A stretch of 64,000 bases of DNA from Octopus vulgaris (taxonomy: Eukaryota), in the NCBI GenBank assembly GCA_951406725.2, contig OX597833.1, positions 45,074,001-45,138,000 on the forward strand, written 5' to 3'. Both the position numbers and the translations under genes were made by a program. Of this stretch, positions 2,407-33,091 are shown piece by piece (the first letter of the stretch is position 1; each line of letters begins with the position of its first letter). Under the pieces are notes generated by a model. The model made no database searches, had not been told where the DNA came from, and saw only the letters and a program-made list of their open reading frames with translations.

Positions 2407-2430
2407 CTGTCTTGCAGCAGGATGGCTCAT
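2407..2430 (-). CDS. Candidate 24-nt micro-exon
   Basis: ctctttttctccatag|atgagccatcctgctgcaagacag|gtaagg. Canonical splice sites, length a multiple of 3. Confidence 0.5.
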
Positions 2431-2802
2431 CTATGGAGAAAAAGAGATGAGACATATATAGTATATATAGTGTATCATTCAACTACAGCAGTAGCTGAAT
2501 AATATTCTTAAGGACGCAATTTACACACACGCAGCACCTTTCAGAGCTTGTCACTAATTCAGTTCTTAACTAAATGGAAAACCAGTAGATGAAAATTGGT
2601 CCAGTAGAAAAATGTTTACAATAAAATTTGGAGTGACATTATAGGAGACTAAATAACACCACCAGTCAAGTTTAGATCTAAATAAAGCAAAATATATTCA
2701 TCTTAGCTTCAATGACAGAAGAAAGCATGAAGAATGTCATAGTTTTGTACCCATGCAACAAAAATTTGTATAAAAAAAGTTGGGAGGTAAAATATGAAAA
2801 TT

Positions 2803-8800: not shown

Positions 8801-11509
8801 TATAACCACCAATCTGCTTTGCTTTCCTTTTCTCTCTACATGCCACCCTAAAAACATCGCCATTCCCGCCCGTTTCTCTAAAGTTCAACCTTCTCATATT
8901 CCCTTTAATTCGATCTCCACCATTCGCTATCATTCTTCCCCTGACTTGCAGCGATGTCCATGAGCAGGCTAAGATTTCTCGCCTCTATTTCATACATACA
9001 TACATACATTTGTCTACCGTTTAAATGTTTTGAACTTATAACCACCAATCTGCTTTGCTTTCACTTTCTCTCTACATGCCACCCTAAAAACATCGCCATT
9101 CCCGCCCGTTTCTCTAAAGTTCAACCTTCGCATATTCCCTTTAATTCGATCTCCACCATTCACTATCATTTCTTCCCCTGACTTGCAGCGATGTCCATGA
9201 GCAGGCTAAGATTTCTCGCTTCTATTTCATACATACATACATACATTTGTCTACCGTTTAAATGTTTTGAACTTATAACCACCAATCTGCTTTGCTTTCC
9301 TTTTCTCTCTACATGCCACCCTAAAAACATCGCCATTCCCGCCCGTTTCTCTAAAGTTCAACCTTCGCATATTCCCTTTAATTCGATCTCCACCATTCAC
9401 TATCATTTCTTCCCCTGACTTGCAGCGATGTCCATGAGCAGGCTAAGATTTCTCGCTTCTATTTCATACATACATACATACATTTGTCTACCCTTTAAAT
9501 GTTTTGAACTTATAACCACCAATCTGCTTTGCTTTCCTTTTCTCTCTACATGCCACCCTAAAAACATCGCCATTCCCGCCCGTTTCTCTAAAGTTCAACC
9601 TTCGCATATTCCCTTTAATTCGATCTCCACCATTCACTATCATTTCTTCCCCTGACTTGCAGCGATGTCCATGAGCAGGCTAAGATTTCTCGCTTCTATT
9701 TCATACATACATACATACATTTGTCTACCGTTTAAATGTTTTGAACTTATAACCACCAATCTTCTTTGCTTTCCTTTTCTTACTACATCCCACCCAAAAA
9801 ACATCCCCTTTCCCGCCCTTTTCTCTAAAGTTCAACCTTCGCATATTCCCTTTAATTCGATCTCCACCATTCACTATCATTTCTTCCCCTGACTTGCAGC
9901 GATGTCCATGAGCAGGCTAAGATTTCTCGCTTCTATTTCATACATACATACATACCATTGTCTACCGTTTAAATGTTTTGAACTTATAACCACCAATCTG
10001 CTTTGCTTTCCTTTTCTCTCTACATGCCACCCCAAAAACATCGCCATTCCCGCCCGTTTCTCTAAAGTTCAACCTTCGCATACTCCCTTTAATTCGATCT
10101 CCACCATTCACTATCATTTCTTCCCCTGACTTGCAGCGATGTCCATGAGCAGGCTAAGATTTCTCGCTTCTATTTCATACATACATACATACATTTGTCT
10201 ACCGTTTAAATGTTTTGAACTTATAACCACCAATCTGCTTTACTTTCCTTTTCTCTCTACATGCCACCCTAAAAACATCGCCATTCCCGCCCGTTTCTCT
10301 AAAGTTCAACCTTTGCATATTCCCTTTAATTCGATCTCCACCATTCACTATCATTTCTTCCCCTGACTTGCAGCGATGTCCATGAGCAGGCTAAGATTTC
10401 TCGCTTCTATTTCATACATACATACATACATTTGTCTACCGTTTAAATGTTTTGAACTTATAACCACCAATCTGCTTTGCTTTCCTTTTCTCTCTACATG
10501 CCACCCTAAAAACATCGCCATTCCCGCCCGTTTCTCTAAAGTTCAACCTTCGCATATTCCCTTTAATTCGATCTCCACCATTCACTATCATTTCTTCCCC
10601 TGACTTGCAGCGATGTCCATGAGCAGGCTAAGATTTCTCGCTTCTATTTCATACATACATACATACATTTGTCTACCGTTTAAATGTTTTGAACTTATAA
10701 CCACCAATCTGCTTTGCTTTCCTTTTCTCTCTACATGCCACCCTAAAAACATCGCCATTCCCGCCCGTTTCTCTAAAGTTCAACCTTCGCATATTCCCTT
10801 TAATTCGATCTCCACCATTCACTATCATTTCTTCCCCTGACTTGCAGCGATGTCCATGAGCAGGCTAAGATTTCTCGCTTCTATTTCATACATACATACA
10901 TACATTTGTCTACCGTTTAAATGTTTTGAACTTATAACCACCAATCTGCTTTGCTTTCCTTTTCTCTCTACATGCCACCCTAAAAACATCGCCATTCCCG
11001 CCCGTTTCTCTAAAGTTCAACCTTCGCATATTCCCTTTAATTCGATCTCCACCATTCACTATCATTTCTTCCCCTGACTTGCAGCGATGTCCATGAGCAG
11101 GCTAAGATTTCTCGCTTCTATTTCATACATACATACATACATTTGTCTACCGTTTAAATGTTTTGAACTTATAACCACCAATCTGCTTTGCTTTCCTTTT
11201 CTCTCTACATGCCACCCTAAAAACATCGCCATTCCCGCCCGTTTCTCTAAAGTTCAACCTTCGCATATTCCCTTTAATTCGATCTCCACCATTCGCTATC
11301 ATTTCTTCCCCTGACTTGCAGCGATGTCCATGAGCAGGCTAAGATTTCTCGCTTCTATTTCATACATACATACATACATTTGTCTACCGTTTAAATGTTT
11401 TGAACTTATAACCACCAATCTGCTTTGCTTTCCTTTTCTCTCTACATGCCACCCTAAAAACATCGCCATTCCCGCCCGTTTCTCTAAAGTTCAACCTTCG
11501 CATATTCCC
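2803..11509. repeat. Tandem array of ~37 near-identical 233-237-bp units
   Basis: Unit attcactatcatttcttcccctgacttgcagcgatgtcc...ttcgatctccacc repeated head-to-tail. Length variation lies almost entirely in the internal T-run/(cata)n. The last unit is truncated at 11509. Confidence 0.98.
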
Positions 11510-12004
11510 GGTGCACCCGCCCTTGCCCACCCCCACCACCAATACCGGATATCTCTATATTTTTGTTCCATCTATACCGGATGTCGCTTCTCCCACCACC
11601 ATTATAGGTGTCTACTCTTCGAACCCCCCTCTCAGCACGCTATTTCACCATGCATTACCCCTCTCTTGATATCCTACGTTCTACTTGCCTAGAACCTGTC
11701 ATCATTTCTCTGAACCACCCCTCCCCACTGGTGCTCCCCTATATATTTCTATACCCCCCCCCCACATAAAAAGCACCATCCGAACGTGGCCGATGCCAGA
11801 CCCCTCTGGCACCTGTGCAGGTGGCACGTAAAAAACACCCACTACACTCGCGGAGTGGTTGGCGTTAGGAAGGGCATCCAGCTGTAGAAACACTGCCAGA
11901 CTAGACTGGAGCCTGGGGCAGTCCCGAGCTCCCCAGACCCCGGTCGAAACCGTCCAACCCGTGCTAGCGCGGAAAACGGACGTTAAACGATGATGATGAT
12001 GAAG
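2803..12004 (+). mobile_element. Composite non-autonomous retroposon: tandem array + C-rich linker (11510-~11766) + RTE 3' end and (GAT)n tail (~11767-12004)
   Basis: The flanks atatgaaaatt| and |gcataaaattg are separated by only 12 bp in the paralogous empty site at 15709-15742. The 3' ~240 bp match the RTE 3' UTR. Confidence 0.8.
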
Positions 12005-13860
12005 GCATAAAATTGAATTTAAGCATAAATAACTTTTTTGTTTTAAAAACAAGCTATATTTTAATCAACCAATAATGCCAAAATTTTACTAGAGAATGAA
12101 ATTGCCTGAAAATTCACAGATACTATTATTTTGACCTAAATAATAACTGAAAAAAAATTTCATTGAAATCTGTTTGATACCGATTGCATACACATTAATA
12201 ACACCTTCCATACTGTGATACTGATCATACAGAAATCACAATTTGTATCAAGTATTTGTTTCACACCCTTTAAATTAAGTGCCAGTTGAAATGGACAATC
12301 AGTATGAATGGGTAAAGCTGAATTCCTATTTTCAACTTCCTAATTATTAATTAATAATTAAAAAAATATTTTAATTCTTTACTTTTAAAAGAAGTAACAA
12401 TTAATAACAAATAAATGTAATAAAGTGTAATAAAATTTTTAGTTTTAATAAATACTAATATTTTCTAAATCTAAATACTTCATTTGAACTTCTATCCTTA
12501 GCTGCAATATTTTAAGTAAAATCTTCTTGTTCTGTACTTTACCAGATGTAATAACTAGTCCTGAACTTTTCCAAGTGTAATAATAGGTCCTCTAATTTTC
12601 CAGGTTTATAAGCTTAAGAATATTATTTCTATTCCTCATATTTTTCCATGTAATATATATAGATAGTTAGGTTGAGATATACATATATATACACACATGC
12701 ATCCATACAAGCATGTAGATATACATATGTGTGTGTGTGTGTGTGTGTGTATGTATAGGCCACATGCTTACCAGCTGGTCAGTCTGTCTCACTACACAGT
12801 GTTTATACAATAAACATGCTGAGTAAAATGTACACGTTAAGAATAATTATTGTAATAATAATAACTAGCAGATCCCTTAAACATTTGACAGAATCAACAG
12901 TCGATTTCATGGCTTATTTGTGAAAACTTTACCCTAAAACTCTAAAAGCGTAGCCTGGGTTGTGTTTGTGTGAAAAGATGGTAAACATTCATTTTAGAAA
13001 TATATTCTTTATTCTTATTATTTAAGCATTACTCCCTCATTTCCTTACTGACATGAAATTTCGTAACATTTTACTTCACGACTCTTTTTCTACTTATTTT
13101 TGGTCAATGCAACTAGCGATTCTTAATTCCTCGTGCATTTTTCTATCATTTAAGACTAAGAAAAGTATACTTTTAATTTAAAATTTTAAAATTTATGTTA
13201 ATTGAAGATGAATATCTGCCTACTGCTCATCACCCACCTTGAGGTCACATTATATTTTAATGTAACTTTTTTCTACTGAACAAAGTCTCAAACTATTTAT
13301 GCCAAACTATAGCTGAGGAGGTGACCTCTTTAAAACTATTAACAGTTTGCAATTTAGTTGAGAACTGAATTAGTGGTGAAGCTTGGAAGCTGCTGTGTTT
13401 GATGAAATGGTGGACTTGAGAATATATTCAGCCAGTACCGTGGTTGAATGATATTAGAACTTCTTGGAAGCTCAATCAAATTGCTGGCCTACATACGTTA
13501 TTCACATCATTTCTTATTATTGATCTCGTCTTTTGTTCTTAATTTCATCATACTTTTACTTAGAAGTCTGCCACAAAAGGCAACAAAATAACCTGTAAAA
13601 TCATATCTTTATCAAACATATATGAAATATCTGTATGTAATAGGCAAATGTTAAAACCATTATTGAAATCAGTATGAAAAATAGTTCAGAATCACCTATA
13701 AGTAGACATTCATACTTTATTTCATTTAAAATTGCAAACTTGTGTAATCATAGATATTTATAAATAACTGTGTTTGTGTGTGTAAATGTTTTAAATATTT
13801 TTTCTAAGTGAAAACAATGCAATTTATGAATATTAATAACACAGGTTGATGGTTACTTAT

Positions 13861-13887
13861 GGGTGATGGTGGTGGCATTCAACATAC
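13861..13887 (-). pseudogene. 27-nt micro-exon slot with both splice sites lost
   Basis: ctccatAT|gtatgttgaatgccaccaccatcaccc|ATaagt. Paralog of 855-881 with a phase-0 stop. Confidence 0.45.
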
Positions 13888-14141
13888 ATATGGAGAAAAA
13901 GAGATGAGATACATGTATATAGTGCATATATAGATAAATATATTCTCATACATAGAGACATGTGCACATATGTGTTTGTACATCCATATGTATAGGCCAC
14001 ATGTATATCAGCCAGTATTTCATCAACAAAGATTAAAATGTATGTGTGTATTAATATGGCATCAATAATTAATTAGAATAATAATTCTATATTTATAAAT
14101 TTGTGTTGCAAGATTCTCCATGTTATACTATTATTTGAAAC

Positions 14142-14575
14142 ATATTGCTGCATATGGTGATGGTCATATATTTTTGTTTGCCAAATAGATACGTGCACTA
14201 TATATTCGTTCTTCCCCCATTTATTACTGTTCTTACTCTAACTCATGTCCATCATCCAGATACCTTTTGTCACACATCTGTGACCTCTTCAGTGACACTT
14301 TCCGTATTCGTGTTTGCTCTTGCTCTGCTTATTCCATTCTGTTCTTCTATGATGTGTCACATCATAAAAAAAAACAATGGAATGAGCAGAAGAAGAGCAC
14401 ACACGAATGCAGAAAGTGTTGCTGAAGAGGTCAGAGATGTGTGACAAAAGGTATCCAGACAATGGACTTAAGTTAGAATAAGAAGAGTAATAAACAAGTG
14501 AAGATCAGATATGTAGTGCATGTGTCTATTTGGCCAAAAAAGGAAAATAATGAACATCCCAAATGACAACAATAT
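14142..14575. mobile_element. Palindromic MITE-like hairpin, duplicate copy
   Basis: Paralog of 1218-1656. A half copy lies at ~18419-18715. Confidence 0.75.
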
Positions 14576-15323
14576 AATCATAATAATTAAACATTATGAA
14601 TTCTTCTTGTAAGCTTGTTTCACTATGTGGCCTGCATACATTATCCATATCTTATTTATTATTGTACTTAAATTCATCATACTTTTATCTAAGAGTCTAC
14701 CACAAAAAGCAATGAATGAGAAGAAAAATCATATCTTTAGCAGCCATTTATGGAAAATCTGTCTGTGACAGGCGGAAACTAAAAATATATTTGAAATCAG
14801 AATAAAAAATAGTTCTGAATCACTGAATAACCTATAAACAAACAATCAGCACTTATTTCATCTAAAAGTGCAGTTGTGTAATTATAGATATATAAAAATA
14901 ATCATGTGTGTGTATGTGTGTGCATGTGTGTGTGTAGATATATATATACATTTGTGTGTGTATGTGTTTGTGTATCTGTATGTGTGTGTGTGTTTGCATC
15001 TGTGTGTGTGTGTGAAAAAATCATCCAATGTTCTGTCATGAGGACCACAGACTTGAAGTGTTTCAAATTACAAGACACCATGTGAGAGAAAATCGCAATG
15101 TCATTGGAGCATAATGTGTCCACATGGATGATGGCTCACTTGCATTCAATATTGCTGCAAAGAGAGAGAAAGTCAAACTGTTCAACCCATGACAGCAAGG
15201 AATGTAGACGTTAAACAACGACGATGCCGATGATGACTATGTTAATGTTTTAAATATGTTTTCTAAGCCAAAACAATGCAGTTATAAATATTAATAATAT
15301 AGGTTGATGATTAGTTCCCTTAC

Positions 15324-15347
15324 CTGTCTTGCAGCATGATGGATTAT
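15324..15347 (-). CDS. Candidate 24-nt micro-exon
   Basis: ctccatag|ataatccatcatgctgcaagacag|gtaagg. Differs from 2407-2430 by three substitutions. Confidence 0.5.
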
Positions 15348-18082
15348 CTATGGAGAAAAAGAGATGAGACATATATAGTATATATAGTGTATCATTCAAC
15401 TACAGCAGTAGCTGAATAATATTCTTAAGGACGCAATTTACACACACGCAGCACCTTTCAGAGCTTGTCACTAATTCAGTTCTTAACTAAATGGAAAACC
15501 AGTAGATGAAAATTGATCCAGTAGAAAAATGTTTACAATAAAATTTGGAGTGACATTATAGGAGACTAAATAACACCACCAGTCAAGTTTAGATCTAAAT
15601 AAAGCAAAATATATTCATCTTAGCTTCAATGACAGAAGAAAGCATGAAGAATTTCATAGTTTTGTACCCATGCAACAAAAATTTGTATAAAAAAAGTTGG
15701 GAGGTAAAATATGAAAATTAATATAAGTAATGCATAAAATTGAATTTAAGCATAAATAACTTTTTTGTTTTAAAAACAAGCTATATTTTAATCAACCAAT
15801 AATGCCAAAATTTTACTAGAGAATGAAATTGCCTGAAAATTCACAGATACTATTATTTTGACCTAAATAATAACTGAAAATAAATTTCATTGAAATCTGT
15901 TTGATACCGATTGCATACACATTAATAACATCTTCCATACTGTGATACAGATCATTCAGAAATCACAATTTGTATCAAGTATTTGTTTCACACCCTTTAA
16001 ATTAAGTGTCAGTTGAAATGGACAATCAGTATGAATGGGTAAAGCTCAATTTGACAGAGCTCAATTCAAGGAATTTCATAGTATCAATCTCATGCAATGA
16101 AGTTCTAAAAGAAAATACTTATGAGTGTTTGTTTCTCAAATTTCAGGGTGATAATATAATTCTAAGACACTGTGAGGAATTTCATAGTTTTCATCTCATT
16201 AAATTAAACATTCTATTTATTGTTTTTGTATATCAATTAAAAAATAAAATTTACACACTCATAAATCTTTCACATTCATAATTTCGTTGACAATGTACAT
16301 TTGTATTTTAATCAGTTGCCTTTTAATTGCTCTAATTTTCACTTTTCATCTGTCTCTCTCTTCTTTACTAGGCTTGTTAATATAAAGGTCATAGCACAAT
16401 TTCTTCTGCAATTTATAAAACGTTTTTTTTATCTTGAAAACATTCGTTATATTAAAATTATTTTGTTAATTAATTTTAATTAATATATTATTATTGTACT
16501 AACTAATTATGTACTAGAATTATTTTTTATAACCTATTTTCAACTTCCTAATTATTAATTAATAATTAAAAAAATATTTTAATTCTTTATTTTTAAAAGA
16601 AGTAACAAGCAATAACAAATAAATGTAATAACGTGTAATAAAATTTTTAGTTTTAATAAATGCTAATATTTTCTAAATCTAAATATTTCATTTGAACTTC
16701 TATCCTTAGCTGCAATATTTTAAGTAAAATCTTCTTGTTCTGCACTTTACCAGGTGTAATAACTAGTCCTGAACATGTCCAAGTGTAATAATAGGTCCTG
16801 TAATTTTCCAGGTTTATAAGCTTAAGAATATTATTTCTATTCCTCATATTTTTCCATGTAATATATATAGAGATATAGTTAGGTTGAGATATACATATAT
16901 ATACACACATGCATCCATACAAGCATGTAGATATACATGTGTGTGTGTGTGTGCGTGTGTGTGTGTGTGTATAGGCCACATGTGTACCAACTGGTCAGTC
17001 AGTCTCACTACACAGTGTTTATACAATAAACATGCTGAGTAAAATGTACATGTTAAGAATAATTATTGTAATAATAATAACTAGCAGATCCCTTAAACGT
17101 TTGAAAGAATCAAAAGTCGACTTCATGGCTTATTTCTGAAAACTTTACCCTAAAACTCTAAAAGCGTAGCCTGGGTTGTGTTTGTGTGAAAAGATGGTAA
17201 ACATTCATTTTAGAAATATATTCTTTATTCTCATTCTTGGAGCATTACTCCCTCATTTCCTTACTGACATGAAATTTCGTAACATTTTACTTCACGACTC
17301 TTTTTCTACTAATTTTTGTTCAATGCAACTAGCGATTCTTAATTCCTCGTGCATTTTTCTATCATTTAAGACTAACAAAAGTATACTTTAAATATAAAAT
17401 TTTAAAATTTATGTTAATTGAAGATGAATATCTGCCTACTGCTCATCACCCACCTTGAGGTCACATTATATTTTAATGTAACTTTTTTCTACTGAACAAA
17501 GTCTCAAACTATTTATGCCAAACTATAGCTGAGGAGGTGTCCTCTTTAAAACTATTAACAGTTTGCAATTTAGTTGAGAACTGAATTAGTAGTGAAGCTT
17601 GGAAGCTGCTGTGTTTGATGAAATGGTGGACTTGAGAATATATTCAGCCAGTACTGTGGTTGAATGATATTAGAACTTCTTGGAAGCTCACTAAAATTGC
17701 TGGCCTACATACATTATTCACATCATTTCTTATTATTGATCTCGTCTTTTGTTCTTAATTTCATTATACTTTTACCTGGAAGTCTGCCACAAAAGGCAAC
17801 AAAATAACCAGTAAAATCATATCTTTACCAAACATTTATGAAAAATCTGTATGTGATAGGCAAAGATTAAAACCATTATTGAAATCAGTATGAAAAATGG
17901 TTCAGAATCACCTATAAGTAGACAATCATAATTTATTTCATTTAAAATTGCAGACTTGTGTAATCACAGATATTTATAAATAATTGTGTTTGTATGTGTG
18001 TCTGTAAATGTTTTAAATATTTTTTCTTAGTGAAAACAATGCAATTTATAAATTTCAATAACACAGGTTGATGGTTACTTAC

Positions 18083-18124
18083 GTAAGGCATTGGCTTCCT
18101 GCATTGAGTCTTTCTCATGCATAC
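18083..18124 (-). CDS. Candidate 42-nt micro-exon
   Basis: cttctttttctccatag|gtatgcatgagaaagactcaatgcaggaagccaatgccttac|gtaagt. Confidence 0.5.
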
Positions 18125-18881
18125 CTATGGAGAAAAAGAAGTGATATATACATATATATATATATATAGTGTATATATAGATAAATATATACTCATACAT
18201 AGAGACATGCACACACATGTGTGTGTTTGTGCATTCATACGTATAGGCTACATGTATATCAGCCAGTATCTTTTCTCTTTGTATAATGTTTAAAAAGAAA
18301 TATGTTGATGAAAATATACGTGTGTATTAATATGGCATTAATAATTAATTAGAATACTAATGTCTACATTTATGAATTTGTGTTGCAAGATTCCTTGTGT
18401 GAAACCGTGTGTTGAAAGATATTGCTGTACATGGGGATGGTCATACTTTTTTCGTTTTTTGCCAAATAGATACGTGCACTATATATTCGTTCTTCACACA
18501 TTTATTACTGTTCTTACTCATGTCCATCATCCGGAAACCTTTTGTCACACATCTGTGACCTCTTCAGCAACACTTACTGTATTTGTGTGTGCTCTGCATA
18601 TTCCATTCTAAGACCTCTTCAGTGACACTTTCCGTATTCATGTGTGCTCTCGCTCTGCTTATTCCATTTTGTTCTTCTATCGTGGGTCACATATAATGGG
18701 TCACATCATAGAAGAAGACAATCATAATTTATTTCATTTAAAATGGCAGACTTGTGTAATCACAGATGTTTATAAATAACTGTGTTTGTGTGTGTGTGTG
18801 TGTAAATGTTTTAAATATTTTTTTCTAAGTGAAAACAATGCAATTAATAAATATTAATAACACAGGTTGATGGTTACTTAC

Positions 18882-18926
18882 CTGGAATATTCCTGCCTGA
18901 GTGTCATCAGTGTTTCTTATGCATAC
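18882..18926 (-). CDS. Candidate 45-nt micro-exon
   Basis: cttccttttctccatag|gtatgcataagaaacactgatgacactcaggcaggaatattccag|gtaagt. Open only in phase 0 (VCIRNTDDTQAGIFQ). Confidence 0.5.
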
Positions 18927-18950
18927 CTATGGAGAAAAGGAAGTGAGATA

Positions 18951-21900
18951 ATCATCATCATCATCATCGTTTAATGTCCGTTTTCCGCGCTAGCACAGGT
19001 TCGACCGTGGTCTGGGAAGCAAGGAGGCTGCACCAGGCTCCAGTCTGATCTGGCAATGTTTCTACAGCTGGATGCCCTTCCTAACGCCAACCACTCCGTG
19101 AGTGTAGTGGGTGCTTTTTACGTTTCACCGGCACAGGTGCCAGGGGAGTCTGGCAGCGGCCATGATTGGTTGGTGCTTTTAACGTGCCACTGGCACGGAA
19201 GCCAGTCGAGGCGACACTGGCATCGGCCACATTCGGACGGTACTTTTTACATGCAACCGGCACAGAAGCCAGTTAAGGCAGCGCTGGCATCAGCCACGTT
19301 CGGATGGTGCTTTTTATGTGCCACCAGCACAGGTATTACAACTACTATTTCCATTGATATTTATTTCGATGTTCATGTACTTGACTCAATAGGTCTCCTC
19401 AAGCACAGCGGGTTGTTCTGAAATCCAAGGTACTTTGAATGGGCTGGGGCTATGCGGAGCTGGTGCAGGAAGCAGCCCGGGTCTTTGCAGTCACAGCATA
19501 TCTCCAGAGATCTCGGTCCTTCGTCATTGCCTCTGTGAGGCCCAATGCTCTGAGGTCATGCTTGACTACCTCATCCCATGTCTTCCTGGGTCTACCTCTC
19601 CCCCTGATACCTTCAACTGTTTGGGAGTGGCACTTCTTCACACATCTCTCCTCATCCATCCACAGTACATGACCATACCATCGCAAGCGTCGCTCTTGCA
19701 CACCACATCTGATGCTTCTTATGTCCAGCATTTCTCTCAGGGTGCTTACACTCTGTCGTGCGTGCACACTGACATTACACATCCAGCGGATCATGCTAGC
19801 TTCATTTCTTTCAAGTCTACGCATGTCCTCTGCAGTCACAGCCCATGTTTCACTGCCGTGAAGCATGGCAGTTCACACACATGCATCATACAATCTACCT
19901 TTCACTCTGAGCGAGAGACCCTTTGTTGCCAGTAGGGGTAGGAGCTTTCTAAACTTTGCCCAGGCTATTCGTATTCTAGTGGTGACACTCTCTGAGCATC
20001 CACCTCCACAACTATCTTGGTCACCTAGGTAGCGGAAACTATCAACTACTTCTAGTTTCTCCCCCTGGAGTGTGATGGAATCTGTTTTCTGAGTATCTGT
20101 GGTGTCTATTGTCCCGGTGCATCTGCCGCACATGAAAGCTATCTTATCAGTTACTTTCCCTTTGATGTTGCTGCACCTCTTATGCGTCCATAGCTTACAG
20201 TGGGTACATCTTATGGAGTTTCTACCTACACCTTTCCTACAGATCAAGCAGGGCCACCTGCTCGAGGGGACGTGTGCTGAGTTCGCCTTTCTGCTTACTA
20301 TAACTTTGGTCTTTGCTACATTTACTCTAAGGCCCTTTGATTCTAAACCTTGCTTCCACACCCGAAATTTCTTTTCTAGTTCCGGTAGTGATTCTGCTAT
20401 GAGAGCCAGGTCATCAGCATAGAGGAGCTCCCAGGGGCAACCTGTTTTGAATTCCTCTGTTATTGCCTGAAGGACTATGATGAATAAAAGGGGACTGAGG
20501 GCTGAACCTTGGTGTACACCTACTTCTACCCGGAATTCTTCACTATATTCATTGCCAATCCTAACCTTGCTGACAGCCCCTCTGTATAGGGCCTGTACAG
20601 CCCTTATTAGCCATTCGTCAATCTCCAGTTTCCATATCGACCACCAGATAAGGGATCGGGGGACCCTGTCAAAGGCTTTCTCCAAGTTCACAAAAGCTAT
20701 GTAGAGGGGTTTATCTTTAGCTAGGTATTTCTCCTAGCTATGTCGGACCAGGAATATAGCATCAGTGGTGCTTCTGCCTGGCACAAAATCGAACTGCATC
20801 TCATCTAAGCAAATTCTCTCCCTAATGAGATGGGTTATGACCCTCTCTGTGACCTTCATCACCTGATACAACAGTTTAATACCCCTGTAGTTATTTCTAT
20901 CTAGAGCATCACCTTTACCCTTGTAGCAGTTGACTATGGTGCTGCTACTCCAGTCATTGGGTATGACTCCATTGTGAACTACCTGGTTTACAATGCGGGT
21001 GACTAGGCCATAGCCCACACAACCAGTTGTTTTAAGCATCTCAGCAGTGATTCCTGATGGGCCAGGGGCTTTTCCTGGTTTCATACTCTTAATTGCCTTA
21101 ACTACAAGGGAGCTGTCTATTTGGATAGCTGGTCCCTCTACCGGGTCAACATTTGGCAGGCTCTCCTCCTCCCATTCATTCTCCACATTCAGCTGTCTTT
21201 CATAATGGCTTCTCCAAGCCTCTTTCTTTTCACAATCATTAAAAGCAAGTGCACCATCATCCATACGGATACATTTCTCTCCTGTAACATCACTATTTTC
21301 TCTCACACACTGTCTAGCAATCCGAAATACCTCGGTTCTTTGGTCCTCACATTGCTGGACATTGGCAAACTTCTTTTCTGCTACATCTTTGGCTATGTAT
21401 ACCTGCCGCCCAGCCTCCCTTTTGGCTACCTGGTACAGTTCCCTGCTACCCCCATCCCTCCAGGCTTTCCGGCCTGTTTCTTTGCTCTAATGGCTTTGTC
21501 TACTGTACTATTCCACCACCATGTAACTTTAGGTCTGGAAGGGACTTTGCACCATCCACAGACTTGGTCTGTGGCACTCAGCAAGCTGTCCCGTAGGAAT
21601 TTCCAGCTACCTTCTATGTCCGATGTCTGTAGCTCCTCATCCCTCACATCAAATTTCTTGATGAGGATGTCCCTAAATCTCTGACCATGTGAAGGGTTCT
21701 TTAGCTTCCAAATCCTTCCTTTCTGGATTGGTCTGTTTCTTGGTATCCTTCTGGTCTCAAGCCTAAAGTCACTAATGATTAGCCTATGATGAGGAGTACA
21801 TTCTTCACCCGGGAGGGTCTTTGTATTTAAGAGCAACCCTGCATCCCGCTGTCTGGTGAGGATGAAGTCTATTTCGCTAGCGGAGTCCCCTGACTGATAG

Positions 21901-22475
21901 GTTATAAGGTGGTAGTCTGGCTTCCTGAAGTTAGTGTTTCAGATTAAAAGGTTACATGCATCACAGAATTCCAGTAGTCTAGTTCCCTCATCATTTCTGG
22001 TGCCAATACCATGGCCACCGTGTACCCAAGTGAATATACCCGATTCCCGCCCAACATGCCCATTAAAGTCTCCACCCACAAAGATGAGGTCTTTGCCACT
22101 CGTCTTTGAGGTAGCCTGTAGAAGGGTATCATAAAAGTGGTCCTTCTGATCATTTGGTAGCCCCGCATGTGGGGCATAGGCAGGGATAATCGTAGCTGTG
22201 CCACTCTGTAGGACTAAACTGAGCTTAAGCACTCTATCGCAAACCCTGACAATCTCTATGACCTTATCCACCCATTTCTCTGCAAGGAGAATGCCTACAC
22301 CCCCTACACCATCCATGTTACCTTGCCAGAAGACTTTATACCTATGTGCCTTGCCTGTGAGGACCCTACCTGAAGCACATCTCCATCTTACCTCTTGTAT
22401 GCAGCATACATCAACCCGTCTTCTCTCAAGCATCTCTACAATCTCACTACACCTACCTTTCAGTGTACCAACACT
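18951..22475 (-). mobile_element. RTE-clade LINE, nearly complete ORF (APE endonuclease + RT + PHD-like Cys motif), frameshifted, lacking 5' UTR
   Basis: ORF pieces VGTLKGR..CIQEVRW..GDFNGHVG (APE), KAFDRVPR, GVHQGSALSPLLF, LLYADDL (RT), CLICRKGVGRNSIRCTHC. (cat)n tail at 18951. Confidence 0.95.
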
Positions 22476-22672
22476 GATATATATATATATATATATATAT
22501 ATAGATAAATATATACTCATACATATAGAGACATGCACAATTGTGTGTGTTTGTGCATTCTTATGTATAGGCCACATGTATATCAGCCAGTATCTTTTCT
22601 CTTTGTATAATGTTTAAAAAGAAATATGTTGATGAAAATATACGTGTGTATTAATATAGCATTAAAATTAAT

Positions 22673-24925
22673 TCGTTTAACGTCCGTTCTCCATGCTAGC
22701 ATGGGTTGGACGGTTCGACCGGGGATCTGGGAAGCCAGAAGGCTGCACCAGGCTCCGGTCTTATCTGGCAATGTTTCTACAGCTGGATGCCCTTCCTAAC
22801 GCCAACCACTCCGTGAGTGTAGTGGGTGCTTTTTACGTGCCACCTGCACTGGTGCCAGGCGAGGCTGGCATCGGCCACGGTCGGATTTGGTGCATTTTAT
22901 GTGCCACCTGCATGGAAGCCAGTCGAGGTGGCACTGGCTTCGGCCACGATTCGGATGGTGCTTTTTATGTGCCACTGACACGGAAGCCAGTCGAGGCGGC
23001 GCTGGCATCGGCCACGATTCGGATAGTGCTTTTTACGTATCTCCAGTCCAGGGGTCCTGGCATCTGCCGGGTGCCAGTCATAGGATTGGTTCAATTTCGA
23101 TTCCGATTTCACTTGCCCCAACAGGTCTTCGCAAGCAAAGGGGGGTAGGCATAGGTGCCTGTCGTCGGATGAGGTTCGATATCGACTTCGCTTGCCTCAA
23201 CAGGTCTTTGTGTGTCCGAGGGAGGAAAGGCATGCATAAGTGGGCTGGACTCACTTGTCCTGCCTGGTCTTTTCACGCACAGCATATTTCCAAAGGTCTC
23301 GGTCGCTGGTCATTTCCTCAGTGAGACCTAAAGTTCGAAGGTCGTGCTTCACTACCTCGTCCCAAGTTTTCCTGGGTCTACCTCTTCCACGGGTTCCCTC
23401 CACTGTTAGGGATTGGCACTTTTTCACACACCTATCTTCATCCATTCTCGCCACATGACCATACCAGCGCAATCGTCTCTCTTGCACACCACAACTGATG
23501 CTCCTTAGGTACAACATTTCTCTCAGGGTACTAATGCTCTGTCGAGCATGCACACTGACATTACACATCCATCGGAGCATACTGGCTTCATTTCTCATGA
23601 GCTTACGCATGTCCTCAGCAGTCACGGACCATGTTTCACTGCCATGTAGCATGGCTGTTCGTACACATGCATCATACAGTCTGCCTTTTACTCTGAGCGA
23701 GAGGCCTTTAGTCACCAGCAGAGGTAAGAGCTCCCTAAACTTTGCCCAGGCTATTCTTACTCTAGCCGTTACACTTTCAGCACACCCACCCCCACTACTG
23801 ACTTGGTCACCAAGATAATGGAAGCTGTCAACTACTTCTAGTTTTTCCCCCTGGAAAGTGACGAAAGTTGTTTTCTGCAGATTTTCAGAGGTTAATGCTC
23901 CCGAGCATCTGCCACATACAAAAACCATCTTCCTAGTTAGCCTTCCTATGACATTGCTGCACCTCTTATGTGTCCATAGCTTACACTTGGTGCATCTTAT
24001 AGAGTTTCTACCTACACCTTTTCTACAGATCGAGCAGGGCCATCTACCTGAAGGCGTTTGTGATTTGTCTACCTTCCTACTTATTACGACTTTGGTTTTA
24101 GCTAGATTGACTCTAAGGTCCTTCGATTCCAAACCTTGCTTCCACACTTGAAACTTCTTCTCCAGTTCTGATAGTGACTCAGCAATTAGAGCAAAGTCCT
24201 CAGCATAGAGGAGCTCCCAGGGGCATCCTGTCTTGAATTCCTCCGTTATTGCCTGGAGGACTATGATAAATAGGAGGGGGCTGAGGACTGAGCCTTGGTG
24301 GACCCCTACCTCTACCCAGAATTCTTCACTGTACTCGTTGCCAACCCTCACCTTACTAGCAGCGTCCCTGTACATGGCTCGCACAGCTCTCACTAACCAT
24401 TCATCTATTCCTAGTTTCCTCATTGACCACCAGATGAGGGATCGGGGGACCCTGTCGAAGGCTTTCTCCATGTCAACAAAAGCCAGGTACAGGGGTTTAT
24501 CTTTGGATAGGTATTTCTCCTGCAGCTGCCTTACCAGGAATATAGCATCAGTGGTACTTTTCCCTGGCACGAACCCAAACTGCATCTCATCTAAACTAAC
24601 TCTCTCTCTAATTAGTTGGCTTATGACCCTCTCTGTAACCTTCATCACCTGATCCAACAGCTTGATACCTCTGTAATTATTTGTATCTAGGGCATCACCT
24701 TTACCTTTGTAGCAGTTGACTATTATGCTGCTACACCAGTCATTGGGTATGACTCCTTCATGTATCACCTGATTAACTATACGGGTGACTAGGCTATAGC
24801 CAACACTACCAGATATTTTGAGCATCTCTGCAGTGATACCTGATGGGCCTGGGGCTTTCCCTGTCTTCATGCTTCTAATTGCCTTAGCTACCAAGGAACT
24901 ATCAACCCTGATGGCTGGTCCCTTT
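22673..24925 (-). mobile_element. 5'-truncated RTE LINE with uninterrupted RT-to-C-terminus ORF (23251-~24925); catalytic YADD changed to YAED
   Basis: The 568-aa ORF track entry has QFGFVPG, FVDMEKAFD, GVHQGSVLSP, LLYAEDF. The 3' UTR terminus is shared with other copies. Confidence 0.95.
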
Positions 24926-24974
24926 AGCCAGTGCGGATGCGCGTGCAACAGGACCACTCTTCTTGAATAGTACC
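24925..24974. mobile_element. Terminal fragment of the MULE-like MITE family seen at 39933-40214
   Basis: gcggatgcgcg...caggaccactcttcttgaatagtacc matches the right TIR at ~40158-40214. Confidence 0.6.
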
Positions 24975-25214
24975 AGGGCGACGTTTTTTTTTTTATTCTA
25001 GGTCATACAGGGGTGATTGCATATTCAGAATCTCCCATATGTAAATCGTAGGAATTTGAAAAGTTTTTTACTGAAAAATTGCCGGGGTTGGGGGGGGGGA
25101 CAAATTCATTGTATGCCCAACCCCGGAAGTCACCGCATGCCACTGGTGTGTATGTGTATATATGTGTGTGTGTGTGTATATATATAGGTGTGTGTGTGTG
25201 TATCTCTTATTATA

Positions 25215-25470
25215 AAATCAGCCTAGAAGACGAGCCTCATCCTGAAAGATCTGTAGAACTCGACAAGGACATCCTGAAAACCCTGGTGGAACAAAATATC
25301 ATCGTAACTGTTGAGGAACTAGCAGAGAAGCTTGGATTTGGTCATTCAACCATTCATTGACACCTGTGTGCTATCGGAAAAGTCAGCAAATTGGGTCAAT
25401 GGGTTCCTCACGAACTTTCCGAGTCTAATTGCATGCAGAGAGTGAATGTATGCTTTTCTTTGCTGTCATA
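25215..25470 (+). pseudogene. Mariner transposase fragment (HTH + linker)
   Basis: SLEDEPHPERSVELDKDILKTLVEQN...TVEELAEKLGFGHSTIH*HLCAIGKVSKLGQWVPHEL. WVPHEL motif at 25400-25417. Confidence 0.9.
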
Positions 25471-25495
25471 TCTCACCACTACTGCGCTATGTATA

Positions 25496-26095
25496 TCTAT
25501 ATATATAAAACTGTAGTTGTGTGAGTGTCTGTCCCCTTCGATTTAGATTCCTAACTACTCCCACATTTTGCGGTACAGTTTAACCAAATTTGGGTAGCTT
25601 ATAGTCGTGATTCATATCGAGCCCGTCTGAATATTAGCGCGCGTCTACAATGAGTCTACGATTTTAAAAATAATTTAACATAATTTTTTATTCCATTTTA
25701 ATGCATAATTTTTCGTGTGTCGATGGCGGCGGAGTTGGCGTCCACGCTCACACCTGCACCTGTGGGGAAGGGAGTGTAAGGAAATCAACGTCGTAATGCG
25801 TTGTCAAGGAGACCAGTGTTCTTTTAGAACAACGACTTCATGGCTTGAAGACACCAAAACAGAAATGGCTAAGAAAGCGTCTACATGAGTCTACGATTTA
25901 AAAAAAATTTACCATCGTTTTTTTTTTCCATTTTAATGCATTTTTTCGCTATTATATAAGGGAAGTAACTCTCTAAAAATGTCTACGATGAGTCAACGAT
26001 TTAAAAAAAAATTTACCATCATATTTTTTCCATTTTTAATGCATTTTTTGCTATTTTTTGGCTATAACTCTCTAAAAATGCTTATATAGTTATTT
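25496..26095 (+). mobile_element. Non-autonomous Helitron-like element, 3'-truncated
   Basis: A|TC start. Homologous to 57398-57859, with internal gagtctacgattttaaaaa repeats. Confidence 0.75.
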
Positions 26096-26129
26096 GTGTG
26101 TGTGTGTGTGTGTGTAGATATATATGAAC

Positions 26130-27928
26130 AAATTTTCCAATCTTCTGTGTTGTGAGGACTGGAAACTTGTGTTTCAAATTGTAAGACAGTGTGTGAGAGA
26201 AAATTGTGATGTCATTGGAGAGAAATGTGTCCACATGGACGATGGCTCACTTGCATTCAATGATGCTGCAAAAGAGAGACTGGGAGATGCCACTATGAAA
26301 TGAAGAGAATGAGTGGAGAAAGAGAGTCTGCGAAATGTTGACCCAACATAGGGACCAGCTATTCGTATTCACAGTATGTTGGTAAATAAAGCAATTAAGG
26401 GTACGAAAATGGGGAAAGCCCCCAGCCCATCAGGAATCACTCCTGAGATGCTTAAAATATCTGGTGGCATAGGCTACAGTCTAGTCATCAATATAGCCAA
26501 CCAGGTGATACACAAAGGAATCACACCAATGACTGCTGTAGCAGCAACCTAGTCAACTGTTACAAAGGTAAAGATGACACATTAGATAGAAATAATCACA
26601 GAGTTATCAGATGATGAAATGCATGGAGAGGGTCACAGCCCAACTAATTAAGGAGAGAGTTAGTTTAGATGAATGCAGTTTGGGTATGTGCCAGGGAGAA
26701 GCAGCACTGATGCTATATTTCTGGTAAGATAGTTGCAGGAGAAATTCTGAGCTAAAGATAAACCTCTGTACATGTCTTTTGTTGAAATGGAGAAAGCCTT
26801 TGACAGGGTCCTCCAATCTCTTATCTGGTGGTCACTGCGGAAACTAGGGATAGGCGATTGATTGGTAAGAGCTGTATAATTCAAGCACAGGGATGCTGTC
26901 AGTAAGGTGAAAGTTGTCAATGAGTATAGTAAAGAATTCTGGGTAGAAGTAGGGATTCACCAAGGATCAGTCCTAAACCCCATCTTATTCATCATAGTCC
27001 TCCAGGCAATAATAGAGGAATTCAAGACAGGCTGCCCTGCCTCTATGCTGATTATCTTGCTCTAAACTCTGAGTCACTACCAGAACTAAAGAAGACGTTT
27101 CAAGTGTGGAAGCAAGGTCTAGAATCAAAAGGATCTAGCAAAAACCAATGTCTTAGTAAGTAGGAAGGCAAACAAATCACAAATCCCTTCAGGTAGATGG
27201 CCCTGCTGTAGAAAAGGTATAGGTAGAAACGCCATAAGATATATCAGGTATAAGCTATGGACACATGTAAGCCACAGCAATATCAAAGGAAGGTTAAATG
27301 GGAAGATAGTTTTTGTGTGTGGAAGATGCACAGGTGCAATAAACACTGAAGAAGTACAGAAAACTCCCTTCATATGCCAGGAGAAAAACTAGAAGTAGTT
27401 GATAGCTTCCATTACCTAGGTGACCAAGTCAGAAGCAGAGATGGATACTCTGAGAGTGTAGCTGCTAGAATAAGAATAGCCTGACCAAAGTTCAGTGAGT
27501 TCCTACATCTGCTGGTAACAAAGGGCCTCTTCCTCAGAGTGGAATTTAGATTGTATAATGCCTGTGCACAAACAGCCATGCTACATAGCAGTAAAACATG
27601 AGCTGAGACTACTGCAGACATGCATAGGCTTGTAAGAAATGAAGCTACTATGCTCCACTGGATATGTAATGTGAGTGTGCATACACAACCAAATGCAAGC
27701 ACCCTGAGAGAAAAGTTGGACTTAAGAAGCATCAAACGTAGTGTGCAAGAGAGATGGTTGCACTGGTATAGTCATGTGCTGCATATGAATGAGGATAGCT
27801 TTGTGACATGTCACACCCTAACCTGTGGAAGATGTAGACCGAGCAAGACATGGCATGAGCTGGTGAAGCATGACCATCGAATGTTGGGCCTCACGGAGGT
27901 AATGACAAGTGACTAAGACCTTTGGAGA
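26130..27928 (+). mobile_element. Old degraded RTE LINE fragment
   Basis: Homologous to the RTE RT region (atggagaaagcctttgacagggtc, gggattcaccaaggatcagtcct) with many stops and frameshifts. Confidence 0.9.
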
Positions 27929-28734
27929 ATGAGGCTTTGCATTCATCCCGCTTCCACCCACGTGAGTTATAGAGTAAAAAAATTCCTACAGAGAGAACTG
28001 TAGTTGAAAAACAGGGATAGAGAATTATATTATCAATAATAAAAGGGTAAAATCAATTAATTATTAATTAATTTTACCAAGTAGTGTTCAGTATGTAAGA
28101 GGACCATTTAAGGTATATTTAAAACATTCCCTCTCTCTCTTTCGGAGAGGCACTGAGCAGCTATACGCACACATACACACACGGCAGTAACTTCCACCTA
28201 CCGAATTCAATCACAAAGCTTCGGTTGGCTCGGGGCTATAGTAGAAGACACCTACCCAAAGTGCCACAAAACATTACGTTATATAATTAGGGTTCAGTAA
28301 AATAATTTACTTCACCACACACTGAACTCTTATTATTGATAATATAATTCTCTCTCCCTGTTTTTCAACTACAGTTCTCTCTATAGGAATTTGTTTACTC
28401 TATAACTCACGTGGGTGGAAGCGGGATGAATGCAAAGCCTCATTCGTACTTTAGTGCTCTCAAATCCAAATCTAAGAAATCTTTGAGCTGACGAAGGAAA
28501 TGTTGATCTTTAAATTCAACTAATCTAGAAACGTACGTTCTTAAGTAATATTAATGTACATGTGATCTTTTGTTATTTTTCCCTCCATACCTGCGTGAAT
28601 TATTTTTGAGTATACATTGTCTGGGAGATTGTTCTTATAGTAGAAGAAATAGCTAAGATTTTTTGGCTGCTATTTCTAAAAGTTCAGTGTGTGGTAAAGT
28701 AAATTATTTTACTGAACCCTAATTATATAACGTA

Positions 28735-28738
<4 letters not shown>
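27927..28738. mobile_element. Penelope-like terminal-repeat remnant with interleaved inverted repeats
   Basis: 27927-28041 inverts 28331-28445 and 28271-28328 inverts 28681-28738. Contains a hammerhead motif. Confidence 0.6.
28482..28545 (+). ncRNA. Minimal type I hammerhead ribozyme motif (imperfect stem II)
   Basis: tttgag-CTGACGA-stem II (gttga/tcaac)-GAAA-C-gtac-GTT-cttaag. Stem I pairs over 6 bp including wobbles. Confidence 0.6.
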
Positions 28739-28783
<45 letters not shown>

Positions 28784-28844
28784 GAGAGAGAGTGATAGAG
28801 AGATAGCTAGAGATATACACACATATATATATATATATACTCCA

Positions 28845-29247
28845 GGCGTAGGAGTGGCTGTGTGGTAAGTAGCTTGCTTAACAACCACATGGTTCTGGGT
28901 TCAGTCCCACTGCGTGGCACCTTGGGCAAATGTCTTCTACTATAGCCATGGGCCGACCAAAGCCTTGTGTGTGGATTTGGTAGGCAGAAACTGAAAGAAG
29001 CCCGTCGTATATATGTATATATATATATGTGTATGTTTGTGTGTTGTGTTTGTTCCCCCACCCAACATCGCTTGACAACTGATGCTGGTGTGTTTACGTC
29101 TCCGAAACTTAGCGGTTCGGCAAAAGAGACCGATAGAATAAGTACTAGGCTTACGAAGAATAAGTCCTGGGGTCGATTTCCTCGAATAAAGCCGGTGCTC
29201 CAGCATGGCCACAGTCAAATGACTGAAACAAGTAAATGAGTAAATGA
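28845..29247 (+). mobile_element. tRNA-derived SINE (family A)
   Basis: A-box-like tggctgtgtgg, B-box-like ggttcagtccc, internal (TA)/(TG) tract, end gactgaaacaagtaaa. Five long copies occur in the window. Confidence 0.85.
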
Positions 29248-31309
29248 ATATATAGAGTTTCGGATGCCGGGGTTGAAGCATGCTCTGGCATATCATCAGT
29301 TATTAAGACAAAAACGCTATGTGAAAAAAAAAAAATGATGAATAAAGGGAAGTTACTCCAATAGGCATAGTGAAAGTAAAACTTCGTTCATTGAATCTGC
29401 ATATGTACACCTATATACATACACATACGCACACACATACACACCTATATGTGCCCATGCACGCATCATTATGTTCATGTACACATCTCTATATGCACAT
29501 GCACATACATATGCAGATACACAACACCACACATGTATACATATGTACAAATATACACACATACGTATAAATGTGTAGTCAAAAATCATCCTCGCATATA
29601 TATATAGACGTTTATACAAATAAAAACACATACACAAAACATAAACCATAAACACATTCACATTCGCCACAAAATCTTGAATATACCTATGAGTTATGTA
29701 TGTATAGGGTTATGTATATAGATATGTACACAAATACACCCTCCTGTCTGTCAAACACACCTACACCTGCAGATATACAAGTATATATACATACATATAT
29801 GTATGAAAGGAGGCAAGTACAACAGCAGGTCCCGTGAATATTTCACAGAATCAATAGTTGACTTAATGGCTTATTTCTGAAAGCTTTATCCCAAAACTCT
29901 GAATGTATATACACCTTGTAAGGGTAATTTAACCCAATATTTCTGCATTTGAAATAATATCTTATTTGTATCATAGAATACATATTTTCGGTGCTTCTAA
30001 CAAAAGAACTAATATTTCTTTACATTTATATGCACATGGTTGTTCCATACAGCTAAAGTGTTTAGCATCTAAATTCAGTGGTGAATTCATTAGCAGGCAG
30101 TTTAGCTTCATGGTAAAACAATCAGTTGGAGTCTTTGAGGGATGTGGGTTTGAGTCCCATGGCTGGCTGTTGACAATTTTTTCTGTGTTGTGAGGGTAAT
30201 TTACACAGTATTTCTGTTGTTCTAACAGCAATTCTGCATTTGAAAAAATATTATCTTCTTATTTGCATAACACACACACACAAATATATGTATATATGGC
30301 TAGGTATTGCCAAGGAATGAGTAGAGGACAATAAAACATTCGGACAGATAGACGATACAAAGAGGCAGACGAGAGAAACAACAATTAGAAAGACAGGCCA
30401 AAAAAGATGGGTCATTCGTGGCCTTCTTTCTTCAGTCAAGTACCAGAAGTCACAACGATTTTGGGCAGTTACACTTGAGCTGGTTTAATCTGGTTGCCCT
30501 ACAAAAAGGTACACAATTACGAATACAAACAGCAAGAAAATAACAACAGGTGTCTTTCAACTGAGAACAAATCCAAATGAGCTGGCGTGTATGAAGTGAA
30601 AGCCTAAAGGCAGGAACATAGGAGATGGACATAAGGGGTGTTGGTGGTTAGCAATCAGGCCAAAAAAGAAAGATCGTGGCTGGCTGGACACCAGTCATGT
30701 GGAAGGAGGAGAGATGGGTAGAGAGCAATTTCTCTCCCTATTCCACATGAAGTCATTACTCTCCCTTTGTTTAACTCTTCCTTACAAAATAACCACCCTT
30801 GTGGTAGTGCCACACAAAAGTACTGAGTGCATTCTGTACAGAGAAGGTTCATGGCCTCAAGTGGTGAGTGTGTTACACTCACAATTGTAAGATTGTGGTT
30901 TCAATTTCCAAACACTTCATTTCAGCTGCTCACACCACTTAGCTCCAGCTATGGTTGGTAAGTTAACCATGCAACAGACCAGCATCCCATACAGGGATGA
31001 ACTGTGTTGTGATGTTAGACACCTATATGCCAAAGAAACTGGGTTAAGATCTGACCTTAGAAATTCAAGGGTTCTTAACAGACCGATGTTCTGTATAGTT
31101 GTTAAATGAAGCAGTGAGAATGCAGGGATAAGCAGTTTCACTTATCTTGTCATGGGTACAGCAACCTTTACAGTGATGGTACCTGGAAAGTGTTTTATGT
31201 TAGGAGGTATGAGTTTCTCAGAGCTGTTCCAGTCAGTCAACCCATTCAATGCATGCCAGCAGAGAAAGTAGACATATGAGGATGATGATGATAATATATA
31301 TTGACTCAC

Positions 31310-31463
31310 CTTAACACTGTCTCCTGCAGCTTCAAGTAACGGCTTAACCAGATTTATATAGTTCTTAATAATGGCCAGATGTAGTGGACTATGACCTTCA
31401 TCATTTTGTATATTGACTTTAGCCCCATAGTTCAGCATTAAGCTCATCACCTCAAGATGGTTG
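31310..31463 (-). CDS. Ankyrin-repeat protein, exon (154 nt, phase 2 to 0)
   Basis: tttcag|C AAC CAT...NHLEVMSLMLNYGAKVNIQNDEGHSPLHLAIIKNYINLVKPLLEAAGDSVK|gtgagt. Contains the ankyrin motif G-x-S/T-PLHLA. Confidence 0.88.
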
Positions 31464-31536
31464 CTGAAAGTTACAGAAATTGTAAAAATATATAAGTCAA
31501 AGACAATGAGATTAAATATAGATTTACAGGATTCTA

Positions 31537-31579
<43 letters not shown>

Positions 31580-31606
31580 TGTATATATATATATATATAT
31601 ATATAT

Positions 31607-32096
31607 TCTCTCTCGTGCTCTCTCGCTCTCTCTCTCTCTCGCTATGTGGTGTCGGTTTCTCCCTCTGTTATCACTGTCTCTCTCTCTCTCTCTCTGTATA
31701 TATCTCACCTTCACTCGCTTCCACAGGCTTAGCCAATACGCAGGATGAAAAATATCACCTAAGTCCTGTTCCTCTTTTCATTGTTTTTGCAAGTATCATC
31801 ATCACCATCAAGCCTTCTTATTATTATTGTTTCCCCATATATTAGCGTTATCGTTGTCTTTCGTCTCAAATGCTAGCTGAAGCATATAAACTTTCACTCA
31901 CAAAAACTTCGCAAAAACATCTCGTCTCAAATCTGGTCTTTCTTTCTGTCGCTTAATTCTCTAACCCATCTTTTCCCAACTTCCACTCATAGAAACTTAT
32001 GCACACGATCGCAAAGCATTCCATCTCAAATCCTGTCTTTCTTTCTGCCGCCTAAATCTCATCTTCTCCCAGTGCGCGGTGTCGTTTTGTCCCTCT

Positions 32097-32146
<50 letters not shown>

Positions 32147-33091
32147 GCTCTCTCTTTCTCTCGCTATGTGGTGTCGGTTTCTCCCTCTGTTATCAATGTC
32201 TCTCTCTCTCTCTCTGTATATATCTCACCTTCACTCGCTTCCACAGGCTTAGCCAATACGCAGGATGAAAAATATCACCTAAGTCCTGTTCCTCTTTCCA
32301 TTGTTTTTGCAAGTATCATCATCACCATCAAGCCTTCTTATTATTATTGTTTCCCCATATATTAGCGTTATTGTTGTCTTTCGTCTCAAATGCTAGCTGA
32401 AGCATATAAACTTTCACTCACAAAAACTTCGCAAAAACATCTCGTCTCAAATCTGGTCTTTCTTTCTCCCAGTGCGCGGTGCGCCCGCCCTCCCACCCCC
32501 ACCACCAATACCGGTGAACACTGTTCTCACCATCTACACCGGATACTCCCTCCTCCTCCCCCACCACCCCTTCCTACCCCTTCTCCTCATATGCTTTCAC
32601 TGTGAAAAGAGAAGCTGCTAGCGTCACAGCTCATCAACCGCCCACTGATCTTACGCTTCCTCCTGTTTTGAATCTGACACTGCCTCAATCCTACTATCTC
32701 CTTCCAGTCCCCTCCACGCCTCGTAATATCCTACGTTTTTATTTCTTACGAACCTGCACCAACCCTTCCTGCCATCGTTCCTCCTTACCCCCCAACCTTC
32801 CCCACCCCTACCCATTAAAAGTACCCCGGATCCTGTTGCCCCCGTGCCGCTGGCACGTTAAAAGCTCGAACCGATCGTGACCGATGCCGGACCCCCCGGC
32901 CCCTGTGCACGTAAAAAGCACCCACTCCACTCACGGAGTGGTTGGCGTTAGGAAGGGCATCCAGCCGTAGAAACTCTGCCAGATCAGACTGGAGCCTGGA
33001 GCGGCCCCTGGCTTCCCAGACCCCGGTCGAACCGTCCAACCCGTGCTAGCGCGGAAAACGGACGTTAAACGATGATGATGATGATGATGAT
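31607..33091 (+). mobile_element. Second composite retroposon: ~1.7 copies of a ~522-bp unit + C-rich linker + RTE 3' end and (GAT)n tail
   Basis: 31641-31947 is repeated at 32163-32468. Linker motifs are shared with 11510-11698. RTE terminus at ~32820-33091, flanked by (TA)n on both sides. Confidence 0.75.

Follow-up and report, generated by a model that had tools for sequence, protein, structure and literature searches.

What kind of element joins, twice within one stretch of the Octopus vulgaris genome, the same internal motifs and the same RTE-type 3′ end to tandem repeats that bear no resemblance to each other? The stretch analysed here (the window) spans 64,000 nucleotides (nt) of contig OX597833.1 (assembly GCA_951406725.2, positions 45,074,001 to 45,138,000), and the two copies it contains, element 1 and element 2 (Table 1), had been put forward in a preliminary description as candidates for a new modular retroposon family, loosely similar to SVA, that swaps and spreads satellites. 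As argued below, both are bipartite non-autonomous RTEs, an already known class. They are very probably internally deleted, non-coding long interspersed nuclear elements (LINEs) of the RTE clade, consisting of a 5′ monomer array, a 5′ untranslated region (UTR) tether and a 3′ UTR, which are likely copied in trans by the proteins of autonomous RTEs and whose tandem heads, by analogy with rodent L1, are likely RNA polymerase II (Pol II) promoters. As members of their class the elements are ordinary; what deserves notice is that RTE LINEs carry a head of monomers that is exchangeable and resembles that of L1.

Table 1. Features of the window discussed in the text (EN, endonuclease; RT, reverse transcriptase).
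Feature	Coordinates	Strand	Description
Element 1 head	2800..11509	+	36.9 tandem 237-bp monomers (H237); first unit partial, begins mid-unit
Block 1	11510..11548	+	Present in 5′ UTRs of both RTE-A and RTE-B; array boundary and head-swap crossover point
Element 1 core	11510..11762	+	RTE-A-type 5′ UTR tether, shortened internally; 89% to autonomous L113 (first 153 nt)
Element 1 3′ end	11763..12002	+	Terminal part of an RTE 3′ UTR, including (GAT)n; 90% to L113
Paralogous empty site	14031..16051	+	14031-15719 matches 1108-2802 (97.2%); 15729-16051 matches 12002-12324 (97.8%)
RTE-A copy	18948..22475	-	5′-truncated, broken; EN 92-94% to core-bearing autonomous copies
RTE-B copy	22673..25002	-	5′-truncated; RT 90-92% to H522-headed autonomous copies
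Element 2 head	31607..32477	+	~1.7 units of ~522-bp monomer (H522); origin RTE-B lineage
Element 2 core	32478..32805	+	RTE-A 5′ UTR tether, first 328 nt; 95.5% to L109
Element 2 3′ end	32806..33091	+	3′ UTR of RTE-A, ending in (GAT)n; 274 nt aligned to L109 at 96%; insertion in (TA)n

Layout, copy number and insertion of the two elements

The layout first described was borne out. Three ordered blocks are present at 11510-11698 and 32478-32756, both cores continue into an RTE 3′ end whose final 55 nt, GAT repeats included, are identical, and in both elements the tandem repeats stop at block 1, the H522 unit taking in its opening bases GGTG. The two cores align locally with a score of 69, the highest of 500 dinucleotide shuffles reaching 34, while alignment of H237 with H522 scores 18, below the shuffle mean of 22.4 (P=0.99), so that these two are indeed unrelated. 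There is no tRNA gene anywhere in the window and no RT open reading frame (ORF) within either element. The units of the element 1 array show 98% matches to each other. The tail of element 1 is unremarkable, since identity to it is 83-88% in the window's other RTE tails.

Both elements belong to young dispersed families. Searches with the cores across the 2.8-Gb genome returned 687 and 965 first-look candidates, and the 40 scored from each showed 95-100% identity. Among the best 30 element-1 loci H237 was found in 27 and the tail in all 30, and among the best 30 element-2 loci H522 was found in 28 and the tail in 29. Exact block-1 patterns match 208 and 83 places (control patterns, 0). In 30 of the 208 loci taken in genome order, H237 occurs in eight and the tail is missing in two, the remaining loci having units of 342-361, 405, 466 or 489-498 bp, or no array detected. 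The two families are thus dispersed, young, non-coding and head-bearing, as had been proposed, but the core they share does not represent a novel conserved domain (see below).

Element 1, with a length of 9.2 kb, is one single insert. Its array, core and tail entered at one site, because its flanks are duplicated, without the element, at the paralogous empty site; this site owes its existence to a local segmental duplication of 90-98% identity that pairs 1108-2802 with 14031-15719 and 12002-14340 with 15729-18609. Compared with the empty site, element 1 has lost ~9-12 target bases, lacks a target-site duplication (TSD) and shows a 3-nt microhomology at its 5′ junction. More generally, (TA)-rich sequence flanks the 5′ side of 33 of 53 copies and the 3′ side of 27, against a background of 2%. 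The 5′ ends vary among copies, which reach far upstream of block 1 and have no fixed 5′ end, and in 15 stretches bounding long non-autonomous arrays neither a unique 5′ end nor an ORF was found upstream: 13 begin mid-unit beside unrelated DNA, one adjoins an assembly gap and one adjoins an inverted stretch of its own array. Individual arrays have also been remodelled, H237 being shortened in L057/L075 to a sub-unit of 116 bp, present in over 12 copies, and having its upstream part inverted, in a manner resembling 5′ inversion, in L073.

Origin of the core and the internal deletions

Core loci devoid of the tail lead on into an endonuclease frame. Thirteen cores were fetched with downstream DNA, of which six run from core to EN, RT, 67-bp 3′ UTR repeats and the same tail, six constitute a third non-autonomous group (E3) and one (L115) was excluded as it matched no core probe; Pfam matches in core-bearing copies are to EN and RVT_1. 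The shared core is therefore the 5′ UTR of autonomous RTEs in this genome. The preliminary description, in which the core was a domain of its own, had named as fatal to it a core that is simply the 3′ UTR of an autonomous RTE; in substance this is what was found, except that the UTR is the 5′ one.

There are two autonomous lineages, RTE-A and RTE-B, each with a single EN-RT ORF and the same tail. At the protein level they share 71.7% identity (836 aa aligned), and essentially block 1 (~37 nt) alone is common to the two 5′ UTRs. Assignment to the RTE clade is probable from this architecture and from a similarity of the tail to RTE ends; membership of the L1 clade is contradicted by a single ORF instead of ORF1 and ORF2 and by a (GAT)n tail instead of poly(A).

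Element 2 joins positions 1-333 of the autonomous copy L109 (95.5%) to positions 3724-4003 (96%); the junction shows microhomology, and L109 positions ~334-3690 are absent (a ~3.4-kb deletion). The junctions differ in element 1, in E3 and in a second element-2 subtype; fusions of 5′ UTR to 3′ UTR by deletion have happened at several distinct junctions, and element 1 arose by a separate, independent deletion. A head derived from a small RNA (tRNA, 5S or 7SL) was not found, Rfam yielding nothing real, nor was there a sign of conserved RNA structure in the cores, with folding z-scores of only -1.9 and -1.4.

Such elements have precedents in the bipartite non-autonomous RTE LINEs Bov-A, RTESINE1/2, WALLSI3 and RTE-N2_Lch (Kojima 2018, PMC5786205), which are likewise fusions of RTE 5′ and 3′ UTRs through internal deletion, with no ORF, no tRNA head and a microsatellite tail. 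The examples given there, however, measure a few hundred bp, whereas the octopus elements include in their 5′ part an array of variable length that reaches 8.7 kb, and this part can stem from an RTE lineage other than that of the tether and tail (compare PMC5786205). The words 'tandem' and 'octopus' do not appear in the main text of Kojima 2018 (PMC5786205).

Several features of the RTEs and of the surrounding DNA may be recorded here. Tandem repeats of 67 bp and variable copy number occur in RTE 3′ UTRs of the window (342-476, 19150-19332 and 22825-23035). In L106, L109 and L170, and in both RTE-A and RTE-B, a splice-acceptor-like pyrimidine tract ending CAG|G lies ~60-100 nt ahead of the EN motif, which, judging from its sequence, could permit splicing of the long RTE 5′ UTR. 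Decayed endonuclease frames at 60273-61264 (minus strand) belong to another LINE family, and a C-rich, (TA)n-flanked segment without a core match at 55036-56110 is possibly a piece of another retroelement. A host gene may carry element 2 in one of its introns, because the translation of a short open frame at 31300-31480 (minus strand) resembles an ankyrin-repeat exon.

Tandem heads and their exchange between lineages

Are the heads satellites that the elements picked up from the host, as had been supposed? Arrays occur on autonomous copies too. All 30 loci identified through the inner 5′ UTR lead into EN, and ten of them have upstream arrays with units of 86-392 bp, although none of the 30 carries H237 or H522. 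Units of 146 bp are present in 8.6 copies in L106/L107, a copy with a 392-bp head retains an intact frame of 1095 aa, and one 391-bp array exceeds 11 kb, filling a whole 10-kb stretch without its start being reached; across all autonomous 5′ arrays the unit length is 86-647 bp. Arrays of many unit types share one position, their ends lying at block 1 or no more than ~130 nt from it, in the two autonomous lineages and the three non-autonomous groups. From the side of the heads, 294 internal and 43 terminal H237 junctions were counted, and the first 100 internal ones make up 12 arrays, ten of which finish beside listed cores and two, read directly, in core and tail. The tandem heads belong to the RTE elements themselves: since autonomous RTEs bear such arrays, and since all 12 examined H237 arrays end in core or core and tail, H237 and H522 are not captured satellites. 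What also survives of the earlier proposal is that tandem heads are exchanged.

One such exchange concerns element 2. Twenty loci with H522 junctions, selected partly for variant junctions, comprise 14 copies of element 2, two in which H522 is combined with the element-1 core and four autonomous copies. RTE-B-type loci with variant junctions, these four included, have EN and RT in 11 of 11 cases and H522-like heads of 82-92% identity in 10 of 11, with tandem units of 613 and 647 bp in two and frames of 1051-1080 aa in four. In alignments, the sequence of element 2 before block 1 matches RTE-B and the sequence after it RTE-A; the head of element 2 derives from RTE-B, with the crossover at block 1.

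Similar events are recorded in a core tree built from 93 sequences after removal of duplicate loci, the bootstrap of which had not settled completely. Element-1 heads are nested in it from u88-type through ~350-bp to H237, and E3, separated by a 100/100 branch, bears H237 as well. Between these two core clades identity is 93-97% for the H237 heads but only 78-87% for the cores. Heads have thus been replaced serially and exchanged between lineages. In a comparison of heads with the sequence upstream of autonomous copies many share pieces (42 of 190 pairs match), H522 matching itself alone and H237 resembling the sequence upstream of autonomous L111 with 74% identity.

In autonomous RTE-A copies (L139-L149, L127, L132) block 1 itself forms 33-34-bp tandem repeats of 4-13 units, and in one element-2 subtype (L013-L030, L151-L169) it is a variable number of tandem repeats (VNTR) of the 14-17-nt CCACCAATA type, up to ~900 bp long. 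In the same subtype a second 5′ UTR piece is attached after a short (AT)n, which suggests a template switch between two deleted elements. L166 and L167 are triple chimeras, running from an H522 head through 75 nt of core 2 and a ~370-nt unrelated stretch to core 1 and tail.

Likely promoter role, rival explanations and meaning

The closest parallel for the heads is the L1 5′ UTR of mouse and rat, a monomer array followed by a tether and subject to recurrent replacement (PMC5381506, PMC6454616). As far as these sources describe it, rodent L1 shares with the octopus elements a variable monomer number, an unrepeated tether ahead of the ORF, 5′ ends within the array and non-homologous heads replaced serially; it differs in that here the elements are of the RTE clade with a single ORF and have pyrimidine-rich monomers of 34-43% GC and 86-647 bp, in up to 37 units. 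By likeness to mouse and rodent L1 the heads are likely promoters. Pol II transcription would begin inside a monomer, and the RTE protein would bind the shared 3′ UTR and so mobilise non-coding copies in trans; target-primed reverse transcription, mostly into (TA)n, would usually halt within the array. Monomer duplication, before or after insertion, could renew array length and offset 5′ loss, and template switching or recombination at block 1 may yield the head swaps.

A number of observations weigh against this scenario. Both sides are (TA)n in 22 of 53 copies, where a TSD is not scorable, and a clear non-microsatellite TSD is present in only one of the 31 others. Element 1 is without a close autonomous parent (best match 89-90%), and an autonomous carrier of the ~350-bp head was not found among 30 hits. 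Unlike what would be expected from rodent L1, clustering of 5′ ends at particular positions of the monomer is weak (H237, P=0.06 and 0.14; H522, P=0.14 and 0.016; two window sizes per head, n=26 and 28). A YY1-like CGCCAT, picked like GCCATnTT after the sequences were seen, is present in seven of eight heads but not in H522, the full GCCATnTT in one of eight, and the base composition of the heads is unlike that of the GC-rich mammalian L1 5′ UTRs (PMC5381506). An order of monomer variants common to different loci was not found, so that whole-array copying of long arrays is not demonstrated, although this comparison is uninformative because the modal type dominates among the units and the anchor retrieved none at three loci. 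Contigs from runs that can only be presumed to be RNA include sequence of head, core and tail (one piece spans 11480-11792), but carry no strand or start information and were not used as evidence.

An unlikely alternative is that the elements are bipartite RTEs whose arrays are no promoters but by-products of RT template jumping, or of post-insertion unequal exchange in an unstable pyrimidine-rich 5′ UTR, transcription being provided by host read-through or by a single promoter near block 1. The weak clustering of 5′ ends would fit, as would the duplication of other segments (the 33-34-bp and short block-1 repeats and the 67-bp 3′ UTR repeats) and the homogenisation of arrays locus by locus. 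Yet the diverse units occupy the same position relative to block 1 in all five lineages and groups, dispersed loci have monomer variants in common, and heads are replaced serially in expanding subfamilies, which suggests function.

Much less probable is a new SVA-like composite that would possess a conserved core of its own and would pick up and disperse host satellites. SVA and related composites are non-coding, LINE-mobilised and contain tandem repeats, with segments of unrelated origin on either side of a central VNTR, and poly(A). The octopus elements share the first three traits, but their array is 5′-terminal, their tail is a specific RTE 3′ end and all traced parts (core, tail, H522 and part of H237) come from RTE UTRs; the layout fits a bipartite RTE with an L1-type monomer head instead. 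The absence of relationship between H237 and H522, the missing carrier of the ~350-bp head and the expanded short VNTR at block 1 in H522 cores would be expected of such a composite, which is largely refuted by the identity of the core, by the descent of H522 from autonomous RTE-B, by the likeness of H237 to the L111 upstream sequence and by the 12 H237 arrays that end in the element. We give practically no credence to retrozyme-type repeats, whose monomers would self-cleave through ribozymes and replicate as multimers: 5′ ribozymes have been reported on RTE elements (PMC5786205, PMC8501958), but Rfam gave microsatellite noise below gathering scores and no hits in a further scan, there is no hammerhead-like motif, folding z-scores range from -1.9 to +0.9 and copies lack the fixed 5′ end. 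Internally deleted RTE LINEs with promoter-like heads thus remain the preferred reading.

In the literature searched, no description of RTE monomer arrays was found; these families may already be catalogued in Repbase or Dfam, or described in subscription journals or supplements. RTE-2_OV (Petrosino 2022, PMC9115989) is also an octopus RTE with a single EN-RT ORF, but three published primers (PMC9115989) mismatch RTE-A and RTE-B copies at 5-7 of 20 positions, and it is therefore a different family; the word 'tandem' is absent from the main text of that paper (PMC9115989). Active RTE families are counted in PMC13282606, the available text of which does not describe their structure, and the available texts of PMC10294476, PMC11203168 and PMC6007223 add nothing on RTE monomer arrays. 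In PMC6454616, 5′-terminal high-copy monomer arrays are termed a special feature of mouse L1.

We see an even chance that promoters made of tandem monomers (>11 kb) arose in these RTE LINEs independently of rodent L1, that monomer types turn over fast and are traded via one ~37-nt box between lineages 28% diverged in protein, pointing to an arms race with host silencing, and that the non-coding derivatives are promoter parasites scattering multi-kb arrays genome-wide. In repeat annotation such elements end up divided as 'satellite + unknown + RTE fragment', and in short-read assemblies they are collapsed, so that the true 5′ ends may be missing from consensus models of full-length RTEs. If true, the L1-like layout and serial replacement in a mollusc LINE of the RTE clade would show convergent LINE promoter design, and would offer a testable system for LINE promoter replacement, in which matched families have only their heads to distinguish them and the crossover site is defined.

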